Virus record (IMG/VR): IMGVR_UViG_3300037704_000061
Coordinates: 1 to 24,462 of that record
DNA: 24,462 bases
Direction: 5' to 3' (one strand)
DNA from: a virus
Taxonomy: Duplodnaviria > Caudoviricetes
Shown piece by piece: positions 3 to 8,638 of the stretch (position 1 is the first letter of the stretch; each line of letters starts with the position of its first letter). The position numbers were made by a program, and so were the translations under genes. The notes under the pieces are model-generated. The model was not told the DNA's origin, did not search any database, and saw only the letters and a list, made by a program, of their open reading frames with translations.

Positions 3-89
3 GCTACCCAAAAGGAAGCCGTCTTGCGATCCAGTATCAAGCAACTTTTAAAAGAAGTACTGCAAGAAATGGAGCAAAACAATGAGTGA
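3..89 (+). CDS. 3' end of an upstream gene, truncated by the window edge
   Basis: Open frame ATQKEAVLRSSIKQLLKEVLQEMEQNNE*; its stop overlaps the next ATG (ATGAGTGA, 82-89), typical of translational coupling. Confidence 0.6.
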   Translation, partial: ATQKEAVLRSSIKQLLKEVLQEMEQNNE

Positions 90-348
90 ACCCGAAAAAA
101 CCTATGCAAACGCCTTTAGGTCTTCAGTGAACCAGAACCAAAAGGATGTTTTAGACGCTGTTTATTTAATTCAAGATGAAGTTTTCGACAAAGTGTTAGC
201 TATGACCGGAAGCCTAAAGGGCGCGGAAGGGTTGGACATGAGATTTTTTTCTATCTGGGCGACTCACATGGAAGAAGGTTTTATGGCACTTAGAAAGGCA
301 ATCTCTCAGCCAAAGGGTAGGCTCAGAGCAAACGGCGAACTAGCATAG
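82..348 (+). CDS. Acb2/Tad1-like helical-hairpin protein, putative cyclic-oligonucleotide sponge (anti-CBASS-like)
   Basis: 88 aa; C-terminal DMRFFSIWATHMEEGFMALRKAISQP resembles the Acb2 pattern [24 protein letters not shown] (recalled); GGAG SD upstream. Confidence 0.6.
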   Translation: MSEPEKTYANAFRSSVNQNQKDVLDAVYLIQDEVFDKVLAMTGSLKGAEGLDMRFFSIWATHMEEGFMALRKAISQPKGRLRANGELA

Positions 349-512: not shown

Positions 513-734
513 GTGAAGCTAGAACACCGAGACATAACGCTTGCGCTTCCTTCTAAGAAGCTAACCCCCGATGAAATGGAGGATATTACTATCCGGTTCA
601 AATATGCGGTTGATAAGCTGTATAAAGAGTGTGGCGACAGTAACGCGGTACTATGGGTATTACACTATGAAGCGGGGAACACATGGACGAAAGTTCTAAG
701 CTACTTGCGTGGTTTGCGGCTGGCTGCGCTGTAA
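513..734 (+). CDS. Hypothetical protein, 73 aa
   Basis: ORF with GTG start and weak SD; its 3' end overlaps the convergent gene 701-1057. Confidence 0.5.
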   Translation: MKLEHRDITLALPSKKLTPDEMEDITIRFKYAVDKLYKECGDSNAVLWVLHYEAGNTWTKVLSYLRGLRLAAL

Positions 735-1057
735 TCACGGTCGCTTTTATTATCTACCTCATTAAGCGAATGGACTGACCGCCTAGGGTGATGGTGCATC
801 CTTGCCCCGTGGATATGTAAATCTACTTCCAGGTTTTCGCCGGACGAATCAGATCGCGGGTTATCATTATCAGGAGCTACAGGACGCGCTAGGGCTTCTG
901 GTCTTGCTTCGCGCGGTTCGACTCGTAGAACGGCAACCGCACCCGCTAGACAGATTGTTGATAAGGCGATCAAAGGCGGCACGAATGCAGCCCCTATCCC
1001 GAAGCCGATCCCCGCGACAATCAAAGTAGCAAACGCTGCCTTCTTATATCTGCTCAT
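701..1057 (-). CDS. Membrane protein (N-terminal hydrophobic hairpin, disordered His/Arg-rich tail), moron-like
   Basis: Hydrophobic aa 7-43; G-run SD about 7 nt before ATG; own promoter immediately upstream. Confidence 0.7.
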   Translation of the reverse strand: MSRYKKAAFATLIVAGIGFGIGAAFVPPLIALSTICLAGAVAVLRVEPREARPEALARPVAPDNDNPRSDSSGENLEVDLHIHGARMHHHPRRSVHSLNEVDNKSDRDYSAASRKPRK

Positions 1058-1236: not shown

Positions 1237-1788
1237 ATGGTGGCGACAAAGTACACCAAGGAAATGCCCAAGAAGTTGATCACGATGTTTACCAAGGGCG
1301 AGAGTAGGGCGCATTTTTGCGCTAGCCTTAGTATCTCTAAAGCCACATTTAGCGCGTGGCTAATCGCTTACCCAGAGTTTGCGGAAGCCTACGAGGTAGC
1401 CAGAGAGAAAGCGCAAACATGGTACTTAGACAAAGCAGCAGCCCACATAGAAGAAGAAAGCGACCCAGACGGCCCCACCACCAAGCTCAACACTACTTTA
1501 TGGTCAATGATTATGCGTAACCGGTTTGATTTTACCGAGCATCGCAAGCTTAAGATACCAGGACTTGCTAAGTCTCGAAACTTCGTTGAGCAAATGCAGG
1601 CCATACTCACCGAGCTTGGAAACGGGAATTTGACCGCCTCTGAAGCTACGCAGCTATCCAAACTTGTGGAAGTGGGTATAAAAGTATTTGAGGTTACCGA
1701 GCTTGAGCGCAGAGTGGCGCAGATTGAGCAGGGGCAGCGAATTGGCGCGTCTGATGGTGAGTTTAAACTGGAAGCTGAGAAAGTTTAA
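1237..1788 (+). CDS. terS: Terminase small subunit (Sf6/P22-like HTH plus oligomerisation helices) with a C-terminal helical extension
   Basis: TKY..EM...LI...GES...CA.L.ISKATF..W...YPEFAEAY..ARE and NT.LW...M.NRF are typical of small terminases; AAGGA SD. Confidence 0.75.
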   Translation: MVATKYTKEMPKKLITMFTKGESRAHFCASLSISKATFSAWLIAYPEFAEAYEVAREKAQTWYLDKAAAHIEEESDPDGPTTKLNTTLWSMIMRNRFDFTEHRKLKIPGLAKSRNFVEQMQAILTELGNGNLTASEATQLSKLVEVGIKVFEVTELERRVAQIEQGQRIGASDGEFKLEAEKV

Positions 1789-2186: not shown

Positions 2187-2648
2187 TTAATACTTCATCA
2201 TTTCATCTGAATAGCCGTTAGTTAGGTCAATATCCCCTAGCTTGCGTCTTATTTCCTGCCGTACTGTGTAGCCCGATCCGTTGTGCATTTTCCAATCATC
2301 GATTGTTTCGGCGTGCATGGCTGTATCCCAATAAGTGCGTACAAAGGTAAAGGCGGCCTGGTATATATCTTCGCTAATGTCGCGGTCTGCAAAGACATAT
2401 TTTGATTGCGGTAGATCATCACGCGAGTTTGAATTGTGGTAGAGGTCTTCCATGCCGTCAAAATGTCCGTATTGGTATTTTTTAATAACATCGTTTACGG
2501 CATCATAAGTAGGGCCATTAACCCAGCTAGCCCTAACTGAGCAGCCCATGCTATAGCCTTTAGAAGTCACCGAAAATTTGGTGAGGGGGAAAAGTTGCTT
2601 TAGCTCTTTACGAATCATTTGGGCGGCTTTGGCATAATCGTTTTTCAT
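2187..2648 (-). CDS. LPD29 (large polyvalent protein-associated domain 29) protein
   Basis: AAQMIRKELKQLFP.TKFSV.S..YSMG.SV..SW.NGPT...V...Y..G.FDGMEDLY...YVF..R motif; true start likely ATG 2648 (MKNDY), with GAGG SD. Confidence 0.75.
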   Translation of the reverse strand: MKNDYAKAAQMIRKELKQLFPLTKFSVTSKGYSMGCSVRASWVNGPTYDAVNDVIKKYQYGHFDGMEDLYHNSNSRDDLPQSKYVFADRDISEDIYQAAFTFVRTYWDTAMHAETIDDWKMHNGSGYTVRQEIRRKLGDIDLTNGYSDEMMKY

Positions 2649-2683
2649 TGTCTTTTGTCCTCGTTGTTTCTGAATACAAGGCC

Positions 2684-2712
2684 ATAATAACAAACAATAT
2701 TAACTTATGCAA
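2684..2712 (-). promoter_or_regulatory. Strong sigma70 promoter for the LPD29 island
   Basis: TTGCAT-17 nt-TATTAT with TGn extension and an AT-rich UP-like tract at about 2720-2745. Confidence 0.75.
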
Positions 2713-2735: not shown

Positions 2736-4148
2736 TTATTTTATAAGGGGGTATTTCGGCATGTTATTAGTAGAGTAGTCTTTGTCTCGCTTAGGCTGCC
2801 GGTAGCGTGCGTATTCCTTTTGCTGAACTAGGCGCGGCTTATTGTAAGTGTCTAACCAGCCCACGTGACCATATTGAAAGGCCGCTGAAGCATGGCTTGC
2901 CCAGTCGTGAACCTCGTCAGACGTGAAGGCCCGGCGGTTTTCATCCCATCCAGAGCGAGAAACCTCTAAGGCTGCCAGGCCATGCTTGCAACTGACTTCA
3001 TCGAACCAGCATTGTTTAAACGCAATCCTTGCCACCTCTACGCGCTCAATGACGCGCAGCTTTGGCACTGGGGTAACATGTATCCCTTTCTGTTCCATCG
3101 TCAGCCTACGGGTCTTGTTGCTCGTATACTCTACGTTGGTAACGTCATGGGGTAAGAAGTGATGGCCGTAGCGCTCGAACTTGTACTTTTTCTGTATCTC
3201 TAGGAGCTTTTGAACGTAAAAGTCTGTGTCTTGGTAGTTGTGGTCTTCTTGGTGAATGTATCGGAACTGGGCAGCGTCACCCACGCCGACCACCTGAAAC
3301 CACCATATCGCGTTAGTGTCACGGCTTCCAATATCCCAGGACGTGTGAACCGGCAGCTTTGGGTAAACCTGGATTGCCTTTACTATGCGCCCCTGGTTTC
3401 GAGCGTCCGCAATCTGAGAGGCAAAAAACGTGCCTTTAATGGCGACCGTCTCATCGCAATAGTATTCTTGCTGTATTAGTTCCTCGTCCATGCCGCTGTC
3501 ACGTTCTTCCTGGACTTCCTCGGGGCTAAAGATATAGTTACCCTCATTGTCGCGTGTCTGGTCGACAGTGAGCTTGAGACAATGCCAAGCTGGGTTATTT
3601 TTATTTTGCTCAAAGAGGCGGTAGGCGTGGCCCTTACCAAATGCCGTGTAATTGAAGGCAGCAAAGCCCTTGCTACGCTTGAGGATTGGGCGCAAGTAAT
3701 CCCAGATACGGGGGTGTGTTTTGTGAAATTCGGACATAAATAGGCCGCGCAAGTTACTTCCTAGGTGCATGTTTAGGATATTATCCGCGCCGGTGACGTG
3801 AAGTAAGCCCCCAGACGTGAAGTAAAGCTTGCAACTGGTATTGTTGGGTTCGCGTGCTAGTAGGTGCTTAGGTATGCTGTCGATCCAACGCTGCCCATTT
3901 AAGTCGGTGCCTTCCCAAATGACGTTACGGGCTTGACCGATTTTAGGCAGCGTATAGACGAAGTTACCGGGAATCATGGCCGCCGTAAGCCATGCGGTGT
4001 TAAAAAAAGTGGCATCCTTGCCACCCCTTCGGTGCCACAGTTCGCAAAAGTATTTGTACTGGCCACTGAAGAACGCTTGCATCCATGCTTTTTGGTGCGG
4101 GTAAGCGTTAAAAATATCGTTAAAAAAGTCTATCTCTTTGACTAGCAT
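2736..4148 (-). CDS. terL: Terminase large subunit
   Basis: Walker A WHRRGGKD, Walker B-like LFMSEF, motif III YTAFGKGH, RNase H-like nuclease SWDIG..D, LPHD and HDWASH. Confidence 0.93.
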   Translation of the reverse strand: MLVKEIDFFNDIFNAYPHQKAWMQAFFSGQYKYFCELWHRRGGKDATFFNTAWLTAAMIPGNFVYTLPKIGQARNVIWEGTDLNGQRWIDSIPKHLLAREPNNTSCKLYFTSGGLLHVTGADNILNMHLGSNLRGLFMSEFHKTHPRIWDYLRPILKRSKGFAAFNYTAFGKGHAYRLFEQNKNNPAWHCLKLTVDQTRDNEGNYIFSPEEVQEERDSGMDEELIQQEYYCDETVAIKGTFFASQIADARNQGRIVKAIQVYPKLPVHTSWDIGSRDTNAIWWFQVVGVGDAAQFRYIHQEDHNYQDTDFYVQKLLEIQKKYKFERYGHHFLPHDVTNVEYTSNKTRRLTMEQKGIHVTPVPKLRVIERVEVARIAFKQCWFDEVSCKHGLAALEVSRSGWDENRRAFTSDEVHDWASHASAAFQYGHVGWLDTYNKPRLVQQKEYARYRQPKRDKDYSTNNMPKYPLIK

Positions 4149-4516
4149 ACCGTGATTGTGACAACCGCGCAGCCCTCAGCCACATTGCTTTTACTGTGTC
4201 TCCAGATTGATAGTCGGTCGACCTGGTTATCATCCTCAAACACGCAGGCATGTTGCAGGGCATCGAGCAGCCCTTTAAGTAGGTTGTCTATATCCCGTTT
4301 GCGTTTGTCAGGCGGAAAAGCGTCAATATGAACAGATAGCCGACTATTACCAAACCAATGTAGGTAAGGTCGTGCCAGGTTAGCCACTTCCGAGCGAAAC
4401 GCCTGAGCCTCTTTAGATAGAAACCTACGCTTTCCCCTTGTAATCCAATAATGATTAACACTAACAGGCCAAGGAACAGTAAGCCTAATTCGTTCATTTT
4501 TTGGCGCTGGAATCAC
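4142..4516 (-). CDS. rusA: RusA-family Holliday junction resolvase
   Basis: PWPVSVNHYW and PPDKRKRDIDNLLK.LLDAL....FEDDNQV canonical motifs; GTG start with AAGG SD. Confidence 0.92.
   Translation of the reverse strand: MIPAPKNERIRLTVPWPVSVNHYWITRGKRRFLSKEAQAFRSEVANLARPYLHWFGNSRLSVHIDAFPPDKRKRDIDNLLKGLLDALQHACVFEDDNQVDRLSIWRHSKSNVAEGCAVVTITVC
4288..4497 (-). CDS. Putative holin-like two-TM protein nested in the +1 frame of rusA
   Basis: 69 aa, two hydrophobic segments around a basic loop; ATG overlaps the upstream stop (ATGA); rusA third codon positions strongly T-biased under the TM segments. Confidence 0.6.
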   Translation of the reverse strand: MNELGLLFLGLLVLIIIGLQGESVGFYLKRLRRFARKWLTWHDLTYIGLVIVGYLFILTLFRLTNANGI

Positions 4517-4700
4517 GGGCAGCCTTCTTAGCCTTGCTGAAATCTATGTCAATGCCCTCATCATGTAGGACACTTTCGGCGATTTGTTCGGCTGGCGAGT
4601 CTATGGCATCCGATTTGAAGTAGAAATAACCGCCTACGGCAAAGCACGCAACGATTATAATTAAAGTAACTGGCTCAACTAATCCCTTGAACTTTGTCAT
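4494..4700 (-). CDS. Single-TM membrane protein of the lysis region
   Basis: Likely start MTKFKG at 4700; TM VTLIIIVACFAVGGYFYF followed by acidic DSPAEQIAESVLHDEGIDIDFS; directly after the endolysin. Confidence 0.7.
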   Translation of the reverse strand: MTKFKGLVEPVTLIIIVACFAVGGYFYFKSDAIDSPAEQIAESVLHDEGIDIDFSKAKKAARDSSAKK

Positions 4701-5175
4701 TTTCGATCCATCCTTTGGCATCGTTGTAAGCTTTTACAAACTGGTCGACCGTTCCATCGCCCTTATATGTATTGTAGTGCGCCTTGTAATAGTGTCCGAG
4801 TCCGACCGGATCCATTGCGGTCGGCAGGGGTTCGGGCTGCATCCAATATTTAACACGGGCAATCAAGACATTTAACACCATGTCGGTCATAAGCGTTGAT
4901 TTACGGGTCGGGAAGTGGTCGCGCTCACATTCAAGAAGTATCAAAGTTCGCAATGTTCTTTTGCTGTCTAGGTAGCGCACCACGTCCAAATAGGTAGCCC
5001 ATTCGACTTGTAGAAAGCCTAACGCTGGCCCTTTTGGTAGCTGCATGATATGGGTAAGCTTGGATTCAACTAAGGCGGTGCATGTCATTAAATACAGCGC
5101 CTCAGTCGAATATAGATCGCAAGCAATCAATGAAGGCTTGATGACTTCATGTATATATTGCTGGGGGTTTATCAA
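4675..5175 (-). CDS. Putative endolysin (lysozyme-like/transglycosylase fold)
   Basis: TALVES (catalytic Glu), GPALGFLQVE.AT, ARVKYW..PEPLP and YYKAHYNT..G.GT motifs; TTG start. Confidence 0.75.
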   Translation of the reverse strand: MINPQQYIHEVIKPSLIACDLYSTEALYLMTCTALVESKLTHIMQLPKGPALGFLQVEWATYLDVVRYLDSKRTLRTLILLECERDHFPTRKSTLMTDMVLNVLIARVKYWMQPEPLPTAMDPVGLGHYYKAHYNTYKGDGTVDQFVKAYNDAKGWIENDKVQGIS

Positions 5176-5803: not shown

Positions 5804-8638
5804 CTATGCTGTAATTTCTGTAATTTTTAAGAAAGCAAAACCTTTGCCGCCCATAGTAACCGACCCATCTTGCGATTGCAGGACATAGGCCGTACCACTG
5901 TCACAACCATATCTTAATGTAAAGGTAGTGGCGGAGGTAGTACCAGCCACCATGATATATTGCAGGTAGTAAGAGGTACACCGTGCCACTGAATCCGAGT
6001 TAATCTCGATCCCAACGGCTACTGCATTAGCTGCCCCATCTTGAAAGAGTGCGCCGACCCACTGGGTGCTGGCACTCGACCGCCCAATCATTGATATGGC
6101 TACTTCGATAATCAGTAAACTGCTTGCGCTAGTAGGGGTAATGGCCTGACTAAATAATTGGGTTCCCTCTCCAACCTGTGGGATAGAGGTATCGCACGGT
6201 ATGTTGCTTGAGTTACTGGTAGGGGTAGAGGTAGAAGTGTACACCGTTTGAATCAGTTTACTTGATCCCCCACTGGCGGCGATGGTGATAGATCCGGCCC
6301 CTGGGGTGATTGTGATACCGGAACCCGCCGTAAGTGATGCAGCCACCGGCGTTCCGCTGGTATCCCCAATAATGAGCTGTCCGTCTGTCATCGTTCCCGA
6401 AAAGACAGGAACACCTGTGGCACCCGTGACTAATACGGCACTGTTAGCCGTGGCTAATCCTGCGATGGTATTGGCAGCAGAGGAGTAAAGAATTTGATTT
6501 ATTGTCGTACTGGATAATCCTGTACCCCCACTAGTAACAGCAACAGGAAGCGCCAAGGGTGCCGATGAAAATTGACTGAAGGTCACGGGGTCTGTTCCCA
6601 CTGCCGCTACGGTGGCAGTTTGCAACCAGAGTGTGTTAGCGTTCACGGTTCCCGCGCTGATAGGCACTAAGTCGCCTGGGGTTATTTCGGCGGGTGCGTC
6701 ATAGTCGGTCGTTCTGGTTAATACCCAGTTAGTTGCACCGCTTCCAACGTCAGTAACCGTATATATACCGTTTTGGAAGGTAGAAGCCTGGTTTTTAATA
6801 AGTACGCGCTGTGTAGCGCTTGGAGACTGTCCATCAAGCGAGAAAGCCGCCTGTGTGTCTGCATTGGTTAGGGTCGCACCCACACCGGACGCACCGTTAT
6901 CGTAAGTTACCGTTAAGGCTATTGTACTGGCAGCGACACACGCACCTTTAAAATCAAGGCCAGCGATAAGGGCATCGGCGTATTGCTTGGTTACGGCTTG
7001 CATAGCGCTTACTGGATCGGCGTTTAGCGTTACCGTGCCAGGAAATACAACAGTACTGGACAGGGTTAGACTGGGCGTTGTTGTTCCGTTGGCTACGTCA
7101 ATCTGATTGGCTGTACCCGATACGCTTGTTACTGTACCGCCTGAGCCAGTAGCCGCGATTGTGATTGTGCCAGCCCCGGGGGTAATCGTTACACCGCTTC
7201 CAGCAGATAGAGACGCGCCAACAGGTGTACCACCCGTAACACCAATAACGACCTGTCCATCGGTTAATGAAGAAGTAAAGACGGGAACGCCTGCCACGGT
7301 GGTAACCAGGGCCGCGCTATTGGCGGTTGCTAATCCCGCGATGACGTTATTTGCAGAGGAGTAAAGCAACTGATTTATAGTCGTTGTGGCCGGATAGGTG
7401 GCAGTCGACCAGGCTGGGGCCGTATTAGAGCCAGACATTACAATTTGATTGGCGGTAGCTGTCGGCGCAAGAATGGCTAGGCTATCTGCGTCACTGTAAA
7501 CGATACCCCCGTCAGCCGCCGTGAGTGCCACCCCAGCGCCGCCTCTGGCCATAGCTAAGGTTCCCGTCCATCCAGCCGTGATGCTTGCAGCTCTCAATAA
7601 GGCGGTAAGGGGTGTGCCACCTAATGTTAGTGTGACGTTTGTGTCATCCGTTTTTGATAGGGCAGCCCCGGCGGTCGCTGCGTCCACGTACTGTTTTGTG
7701 GCGGCAGCAAGCGCGACCGATGGATCGTTAGGTAGTAGTAAATCGTTTCCAGATACAGCAAATGGGGAATCATCCAATGCCCCAGTAGTGTTGATAAACA
7801 TAGGGATTTGATTAGCAATAGTTGCGGCGCTGGTACTGGCGACATTTAGATAAGCCAATACACCAGCGGCCACGCCCACAACCTGCCCATTAGTTCCGAT
7901 ACTTGCAGGCCAGCGCTGGCCATTAAGATTTAGGTATTGTGTGGCCGTTAGGTTTAAATCAATCGCTGAACTAATCGACCAGCTAGCAGCAGTACTCTGC
8001 ATTACAAGCGCGTCAGTAAGCTCGATATTCATTTGTTGGATTTCGTTACCCGCCGATATTTTTGTGCGTACAAGGCGGTTAGCGTCTGTGAAGTTTGCAC
8101 CAAAGGAACCCACGGGGAACTCTGGTACGGTAGCAACCTCAATCGCGGTGTTACCTGCGTTCTTACGCCATATACCCCCAGCGGTTAGGATTGGAAGCCA
8201 TCTATCTAGGGTAACCGTGTCATCCTGTGATACTTGAGCGTAGGGCGCGTATTTGAGTTGTAAGTAATCCTGGGTGGTTTGCTGTTGCTTAATCATGATG
8301 ATGTCACGATTAAAGTCGCTGTTCAGGTCATCACCAGTTAGGTTTGAAACTGTCGGCGAATAAATCGATGTCCGGTCGACTGGGGTATCGCCGTAAATGG
8401 TAATGATGTCGTTGACTGTAGCCCCGGTAACCAGGGTCATCGTGCCGCCGCTGGCTGTTCCTGCCCCTGATAGGCCGTACTGTCCAGCGCCACCGCCTAG
8501 GACTAGCTTTGTACTATTTTGGTATACAACGATGTCCGTATTGGCCAAAAACGGAAAAGTGATCGCAAACACCGTTTGGGAAGCGGTAGCCGTGTACTGC
8601 TTACGTTGGGGCGTGTCGGCAATTCTGATATTTGGCAT
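5804..8638 (-). CDS. Tail fibre protein
   Basis: N-terminal T7-type adaptor-binding domain (QYTATASQTVFAITFPF...DIVVY); Thr/Ala/Gly-rich shaft; ATKQYVD repeats; RVLIKNQ...QNGIY domain. Confidence 0.88.
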   Translation of the reverse strand: MPNIRIADTPQRKQYTATASQTVFAITFPFLANTDIVVYQNSTKLVLGGGAGQYGLSGAGTASGGTMTLVTGATVNDIITIYGDTPVDRTSIYSPTVSNLTGDDLNSDFNRDIIMIKQQQTTQDYLQLKYAPYAQVSQDDTVTLDRWLPILTAGGIWRKNAGNTAIEVATVPEFPVGSFGANFTDANRLVRTKISAGNEIQQMNIELTDALVMQSTAASWSISSAIDLNLTATQYLNLNGQRWPASIGTNGQVVGVAAGVLAYLNVASTSAATIANQIPMFINTTGALDDSPFAVSGNDLLLPNDPSVALAAATKQYVDAATAGAALSKTDDTNVTLTLGGTPLTALLRAASITAGWTGTLAMARGGAGVALTAADGGIVYSDADSLAILAPTATANQIVMSGSNTAPAWSTATYPATTTINQLLYSSANNVIAGLATANSAALVTTVAGVPVFTSSLTDGQVVIGVTGGTPVGASLSAGSGVTITPGAGTITIAATGSGGTVTSVSGTANQIDVANGTTTPSLTLSSTVVFPGTVTLNADPVSAMQAVTKQYADALIAGLDFKGACVAASTIALTVTYDNGASGVGATLTNADTQAAFSLDGQSPSATQRVLIKNQASTFQNGIYTVTDVGSGATNWVLTRTTDYDAPAEITPGDLVPISAGTVNANTLWLQTATVAAVGTDPVTFSQFSSAPLALPVAVTSGGTGLSSTTINQILYSSAANTIAGLATANSAVLVTGATGVPVFSGTMTDGQLIIGDTSGTPVAASLTAGSGITITPGAGSITIAASGGSSKLIQTVYTSTSTPTSNSSNIPCDTSIPQVGEGTQLFSQAITPTSASSLLIIEVAISMIGRSSASTQWVGALFQDGAANAVAVGIEINSDSVARCTSYYLQYIMVAGTTSATTFTLRYGCDSGTAYVLQSQDGSVTMGGKGFAFLKITEITA
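6266..7384 (-). repeat. Internal duplication of an ~80-aa module in the tail fibre (copies at about 7136-7384 and 6266-6508)
   Basis: TTINQLLYSSANNVIAGLATANSA...TITPGAGTITIAA versus TTINQILYSSAANTIAGLATANSA...TITPGAGSITIAA. Confidence 0.9.

Follow-up and report, generated by a model that had tools for sequence, protein, structure and literature searches.

The window, by which we mean the whole stretch of DNA analysed (24,462 nucleotides), is a 24.5-kb linear virus record with an estimated completeness of 79% (CheckV). Its minus-strand ORFs resemble the late region of a podovirus-type phage, with genes for portal, scaffold, capsid and tail (named by the order and size of the ORFs and tested in part), and the named matches of the window genes are mostly phages of Proteobacteria. 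After the tail genes, the minus strand carries, in this order, a probable endolysin, a small gene called here g75, rusA, and the large subunit of the terminase (terL). The features to which the text refers are these:

4675 to 5175, minus strand: probable endolysin, lytic-transglycosylase-like (phrog_3108).
4494 to 4700, minus strand: g75, a single-TM protein of 68 aa from the ATG at 4700, its stop overlapping the nested ATG.
4142 to 4516, minus strand: rusA, Holliday-junction resolvase of 124 aa, GTG start with a Shine-Dalgarno (SD) sequence; the host (ancestral) frame.
4288 to 4497, minus strand: nested ORF of 69 aa, a predicted two-TM membrane protein, ATG start, in the +1 frame of rusA.
4441 to 4491, minus strand: predicted TM1 of the nested ORF (residues 3-19, KD17 2.72), over the run of T-ending rusA codons (codons 10-25).
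4384 to 4416, minus strand: predicted basic amphipathic helix of the nested ORF (residues 28-38, hydrophobic moment 0.98).
4312 to 4362, minus strand: predicted TM2 of the nested ORF (about residues 46-62, KD17 2.31), from hydrophobicity.
2736 to 4148, minus strand: terminase large subunit, its start overlapping the end of rusA.
701 to 1057, minus strand: g118, a stand-alone two-TM hairpin protein outside the lysis cassette.

The identity of rusA is given by its family matches (PF05866, E 1e-17; phrog_34; NF007305) and by the conservation in the alignment of D75, D77, K81 and D96, presumably the catalytic acidic and lysine residues if those of E. coli RusA are taken as the guide. The gene at 4675-5175 is called a probable endolysin because of the annotation of its homologues, five of the 40 listed phage homologues being labelled "lytic murein transglycosylase" or "endolysin" and the others mostly hypothetical; its fold model (pLDDT 43) was too poor for use, and a PDB sequence search gave no match.

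The nested ORF lies entirely within the older, conserved rusA at an offset of 19 nt, and its ATG overlaps the TGA of the upstream g75 in the form ATGA, just as the sequence-only reading had described. This overlap was dropped as evidence, because the two other frames force it (the Lys-stop of g75 and the Asn-Glu of RusA) and because the closest relative keeps it before a stop. The ATG has no SD sequence (duplex +0.5 kcal/mol, the weakest of the 18 starts scored, among which that of the endolysin was placed one codon off), while the start of g75 has a strong one (-7.8 kcal/mol), and no stop interrupts the nested frame in the five codons 5′ of its ATG. A run of six A's closes g75 just before its stop (4497-4502, minus strand), where a slip by -1 would lead into the nested frame; this run is absent from the closest relative.

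Against a null in which rusA is recoded, the loop helix is strongly amphipathic (moment 0.98 versus a null mean of 0.51, p=0.0024), prolines are missing (0 versus 4.9 expected, p=0.0024) and TM2 stands out as well (p=0.005). The basic residues of the loop do not (6 K/R versus 5.5 expected, p=0.47), and the basic loop was set aside because the K/E/Q codons of RusA largely force K/R, so that the amphipathic pattern alone counts. All six K/R belong to the loop, with none at the N-terminus or within the last seven residues, and the topology predicted by the positive-inside charge count, the single criterion used, is N-out, loop in, C-out.

The counts of T-ending rusA codons made by the sequence-only reading hold: 13 of 16 under TM1 (codons 10-25), 13 of 20 over codons 50-69, with 11 of 16 under the TM2 stretch as quoted there, and 10 of 48 after the nested stop, the proportion for the whole genome (T3) being 0.247. 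It had named two Trp codons as exceptions under TM1, which is correct; the third is an Arg AGG. When the residues of RusA are held and the codon usage of the phage is applied, 4.2 T-ending codons are expected under TM1 (p=9.7e-7; rank 1 among 7,352 sixteen-codon windows of the genome) and 5.1 under TM2 (p≈1.4e-3, with 4th place of 7,352 for its best window), the skew and the hydrophobicity of the +1 frame being the same fact, a single line of evidence that was picked post hoc. A nested two-TM ORF appeared in 1% of 300 recoded genomes in which all 24 genes were recoded, and when rusA was recoded 20,000 times the frame was open in 1.7% and held two TMs in 0.0001 (0.01%).

How far such a run may arise in other genes can be judged from related phages. 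In 266 genes from related loci, which total 61,900 codons, the best T3 window had a p of 1.9e-5; in 44,699 codons of related phages, a gene set that overlaps the former, it was 1e-5, and neither equals the run in the window. Nested ORFs in the 266 genes number 34 with one TM and three with two TMs, these three lying in genomes richer in T3. Nested one-TM ORFs are overdispersed in real genes relative to the null (45 observed versus 28 expected). Because real genes are noisier than the null, the TM1 run is unusual yet within reach of a very large scan. It is not a property of rusA in general, as 82 T-ending codons were observed against 83.3 expected at the TM1-equivalent site in 18 other rusA genes, nor of gene starts, where T3 is 0.28 versus 0.25 and no general rise matches the run; among other possible causes, no promoter match, repeat, Rfam family or unusual RNA fold was found.

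Searches of 5.8 billion and of 1.84 billion proteins gave no homologue of the nested protein. Against 90% clusters it found only itself, and the two matches among 50% representatives were discarded as unrelated repeat proteins. It matched no Pfam or PHROG family and no holin family, its NCBIfam row was non-significant (E 0.86), and Foldseek gave no match in the viral library. The top match in the ESM Atlas (0.90) is a hypothetical protein and serves as a lead only, and the single-sequence fold, two helices with a pTM of 0.40, is uninformative. Judged by titles and the starts of abstracts, no literature report of a gene nested in rusA was found. One protein collection holds the nested ORF as a called gene of the contig, which makes the locus an annotation trap.

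In the viral, metagenome and genome scans, the sole close relative with full DNA is a syntenic genome, G001, whose RusA is 74% identical to that of the window, its terminase 90% and its endolysin 87%. G001 keeps the ATGA, and the nested frame there stops at codon 4, leaving an ORF of three codons; TM1 is absent, and only 4 of the 16 rusA codons under it end in T. The remnant in G001 is an ORF of 49 codons that starts at a GTG behind a weak SD (-3.1 kcal/mol) and comprises the helix, a weaker TM2 (KD17 1.86, with an Arg in the middle of the helix) and the identical stop. The sequence-only reading had accepted that stops in close homologues would speak against it, and this is borne out in part: G001 has one at codon 4, and not one of the 18 other rusA genes scored is open over the full span. 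Its account of the T-ending codons as the footprint of selection agrees with the extreme rank of the TM1 run in the window and disagrees with the 4 of 16 in G001.

The comparison of the two genomes gives several further measures. The helix of G001 has a moment of 1.07 (p=0.003 given the window codons), and over codons 27-75 its T-ending codons number 23 of 38 possible versus 15.7 expected (p=0.008, from seven regions tried and conditional on the codons of the window); none of the 71 control blocks fell below 0.05. In BLOSUM terms the shared part scores at p=0.025 and the loop at p=0.013, five regions having been tested; these tests are semi-independent and were selected after the sequences had been seen. 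TM2 shows no significant conservation (p=0.26-0.29), and TM1 has diverged even more than neutrality would give (p=0.02). At the distance of G001, neutral drift would leave the nested frame open over its whole length in 17% of cases, so that its break matches neutrality. Synonymous change between window and G001, which the sequence-only reading had proposed to check for constraint, is not reduced under the nested ORF (24/51, versus 11/32 downstream and 164/404 in terL). Taken as a comparison of sequences, the part of the nested frame that survives in G001 nonetheless looks selected. One RusA protein, P0048, joins a G001-type N-terminus to a window-type middle, and because of this mixture recombination around codons 9-26 may account for TM1 differing as a block.

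Beyond G001, eight close RusA proteins (74-98%) are known as protein only. Of eight DNA sequencing runs, one (X4) gave no match; three (X3, X7, X8) contain pieces identical over part of the nested ORF, which shows its presence and nothing more; another (X5) has no listed change in the covered nested part versus six in the rest of rusA, numbers too few to judge; and a last one (X9) spans the nested ORF free of gaps with 49 differences, at least three of them within the ORF, the three listed being silent in RusA and altering the nested tail.

In the wider family, 22 distinct RusA hits were collected, of which three were skipped and 18 were scored besides the window, and none of the 18 has the frame open across the span. 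A larger set held 58 distinct rusA genes, with eight dropped for too little background and 50 scored; the two-TM nested ORF occurs in the window only, being found neither in the 48 other scored rusA genes nor in G001. One-TM ORFs in the +1 frame, with TTG starts, occur in 3 of 12 rusA genes of the family versus 0.55 expected, two of the three being related, and in none of 36 rusA genes located in other contexts, versus 0.29 expected. T3 clumps at p<1e-3 number four in 1,419 codons of the family rusA genes versus 29 in 43,280 other codons, and two of the four either lack a start or are interrupted by a stop. These figures give a weak hint of repeated overprinting at the rusA site.

The three TTG-start ORFs lie at L044:1969-2121, L052:1097-1378 and L051:1250-1354. 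Those of L044 and L052 are in frame with the stop of an M15 endolysin and begin 3 nt after it, where restart or read-through is possible; the one in L044 was considered as a counterpart of the nested ORF and rejected, as it does not align with it.

The sequence-only reading had further argued that no other holin is evident beside the endolysin. This argument falls, because g75 and g118 are both present and are better conserved membrane genes. The g75 family comprises 41 clusters and matches no curated family. Of 34 viral loci, 21 have a peptidoglycan-hydrolase motif no more than 1.5 kb from the g75 homologue, and 19 have one within 300 nt (near-duplicates are included, and 13 loci have no motif match); by motif, the 21 hydrolases are 12 M15 peptidases, five phage lysozymes and four transglycosylase-like genes, and three examples were confirmed with Pfam. 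Judged by this genomic company, g75 is likely an unrecognised holin-like family of its phage group; it travels with three unrelated types of endolysin and would be a good holin candidate for the whole group of uncultured phages. The Cys of g75 is not invariant in the 30 aligned members. The hairpin protein g118 has a basic N-terminus and a predicted N-in/C-in topology and is 62% identical in G001; weak relatives of it stand directly after the g75 homologue in three loci (L055-L057), and between the g75 homologue and a lysozyme in a fourth (L037). Thus g118 is a candidate for a conventional holin-like protein and g75 a candidate lysis-membrane protein, and both are better conserved than the nested ORF.

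De novo overprinted lysis genes are known in ssDNA and ssRNA phages, and nested spanins in dsDNA phages. In its build the nested ORF is like gene E within gene D of phiX174, where, as an account of this system describes (PMC8227390), the T at the third position of the old frame becomes the T at the second position of the new one, and from there a hydrophobic TM. The nested ORF likewise specifies a small predicted membrane protein, read in +1 relative to an older gene, with the same passage from T3 to T2. The two differ in setting: E, which inhibits cell-wall synthesis, is the only lysis gene of its ssDNA microvirus, whereas rusA, the host gene of the nested ORF, belongs to a tailed dsDNA phage equipped with an endolysin. 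The nested ORF has two predicted TMs, is incomplete in the nearest relative, and its activity is putative. The single-gene lysis proteins (Sgls) of leviviruses offer a second parallel: in the part of the survey drawn on here (PMC7693330) they are embedded, short, TM-bearing and homologue-less, gained and lost between close relatives, and some functional ones have no RBS. The nested ORF resembles them in being embedded, short and homologue-less, although the Sgl phages are RNA phages without an endolysin. The same part of that survey reports 178 of 293 TM-bearing candidates as inactive, so that a TM is weak evidence.

Among the lysis proteins of dsDNA phages, the nested ORF resembles pinholins and S21-type holins, as they appear in the sections of the literature used (PMC9671378; bioRxiv 2024.01.23.576932), in its length of about 70 aa, its two TMs and its place beside an endolysin; it differs from pinholins in having neither a family match nor an evident dual start, and the endolysin of the window has no obvious SAR anchor. 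It also resembles the lambda Rz1 o-spanins, as presented in PMC6139136, in being a nested membrane gene in a dsDNA lysis cassette, after a single-TM protein, but Rz1 is nested in the i-spanin and the window ORF in rusA; an o-spanin was rejected, as there is no Cys in the 69 aa and so no lipobox. The closest functional model for an accessory role is Lcc6 of LambdaSo, according to the section consulted (bioRxiv 2024.01.23.576932) a 65-aa TM accessory lysis factor beside the holin and essential for lysis. The likeness would lie in the role; Lcc6 is a stand-alone single-TM gene, and the nested ORF is two-TM and overprinted.

That rusA is the old, conserved frame and that the nested ORF was overprinted on it is supported by the comparisons above. 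Our leading explanation, offered tentatively and as one that could well be right, is that the nested ORF would be a young, lineage-restricted overprinted gene under selection and accessory to lysis. If so, its history and action could be outlined as follows: (i) synonymous T's at third positions of rusA would have placed T in the middle of the +1 codons, giving F, L, I, V or M there while RusA remained unchanged; (ii) the helix and TM2 are the part common to G001, and TM1 would have been either gained in the lineage of the window or lost in that of G001; (iii) since the nested ATG has no SD, ribosomes that finish g75 would probably restart at the overlapping ATG and yield a low-level product; (iv) in this product TM1 would run N-out, the basic amphipathic helix would lie on the cytoplasmic face and TM2 would end C-out, as the positive-inside prediction has it; (v) and finally, the protein would be placed in the inner membrane, where it would help or modulate lysis alongside g75 or g118, a role suggested solely by its position directly behind the endolysin and g75. 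The sequence-only reading, which saw a lysis membrane protein overprinted on rusA, is in this way borne out as to the overprinting, to which the T-ending codons, the helix, TM2, the missing prolines and the excess conservation of part of the frame in G001 all point, and not as to the holin.

The case is built on the statistics of two genomes, and a chance by-product must be weighed seriously, although we consider it rather doubtful: a local clump of T-ending codons would make a hydrophobic open +1 frame, translated to no purpose. The forced ATG, whose identical ATGA heads a three-codon ORF in G001, fits this well, as do the unlowered synonymous change, the missing SD and the lack of homologues; T3 clumps and nested TM ORFs are commoner in other genes than a simple null predicts, half of the four family clumps yield no intact ORF, and an event of 1% per genome is expected often across a very large scan. 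Chance would nevertheless have to bring together the TM1 run at p≈1e-6, TM2, the amphipathic helix, the open frame (1.7%) and the place in the lysis cassette, and it leaves the excess T3 and the amphipathicity in G001, given the window, unexplained. A wider version of the leading explanation, that rusA, between the endolysin and terminase genes, acts as a nursery in which a lysis membrane gene is being born by overprinting, could cite the 49-codon helix and TM of G001, the 69-codon two-TM form and the one-TM ORFs in 3 of 12 family rusA genes, and we hold it to be unlikely.

It is quite improbable that the nested ORF would be the main holin of the phage, whether a two-TM pinholin or class-II-like, that times the release of the endolysin. 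Its size, its two predicted TMs, the ATGA coupling and its position after the endolysin and g75 suit such a role. Holins of two TMs are canonically N-in/C-in with a basic or charged C-terminal tail, whereas the nested ORF is predicted N-out/C-out with no such tail, which sets it apart from pinholins too, and the holin families gave no match. Moreover, G001, with its 87% identical endolysin and its g75, lacks TM1 and an open start; two loci with the same endolysin and g75 (L028, L029) carry a DUF1064 nuclease in place of rusA and no such ORF; g75 and g118 are the better conserved candidates; and the inactivity of 178 of 293 TM-bearing embedded ORFs in the consulted part of the leviviral survey (PMC7693330) weighs against reading function from TMs. 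Equally far from likely would be a real but non-lytic late membrane protein, for example in superinfection exclusion, or a longer g75 whose C-terminal extension comes from a -1 slip. The signals of selection would be the same as for the accessory gene, and the five open codons before an ATG without SD, together with the six A's before the g75 stop, are what a fused product could use; but a place in the cassette speaks for lysis, G001 lacks the A run, and this run misfits the usual slippery heptamer. If the leading explanation, a young accessory gene, is true, a recombination nuclease would carry an overprinted membrane gene of which two allelic stages can be seen, and the birth of a gene in a dsDNA phage would be directly testable by RusA-silent mutations.

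Some further features of these genomes were observed. The slot between the lysis genes and terL varies among loci (L022-L029, L042, L043, L049, L059, L061-L066), and this slot upstream of terL holds swapped small nuclease-like genes, among them RusA, DUF1064 and others (one of which, when tested, had no Pfam match), while the endolysin in such loci is swapped among three classes. In the window, the small subunit of the terminase (1237-1788, plus strand) lies on the strand opposite to the large subunit, about 1 kb apart from it. An LPD29 protein (E 9e-18) is found at 2187-2693 (minus strand), downstream of terL, for which no orthologue was found in G001, and an ORF of 88 aa at 82-348 (plus strand), possibly an anti-defence protein, matches the Acb2/Tad1 hairpin domain weakly and below the cutoff (E 0.002). 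Finally, the 944-aa tail protein (5804-8638, minus strand) has a weak Pgp3_N match below cutoff, and its C-terminal part differs from that of G001, which suggests a receptor-binding swap.
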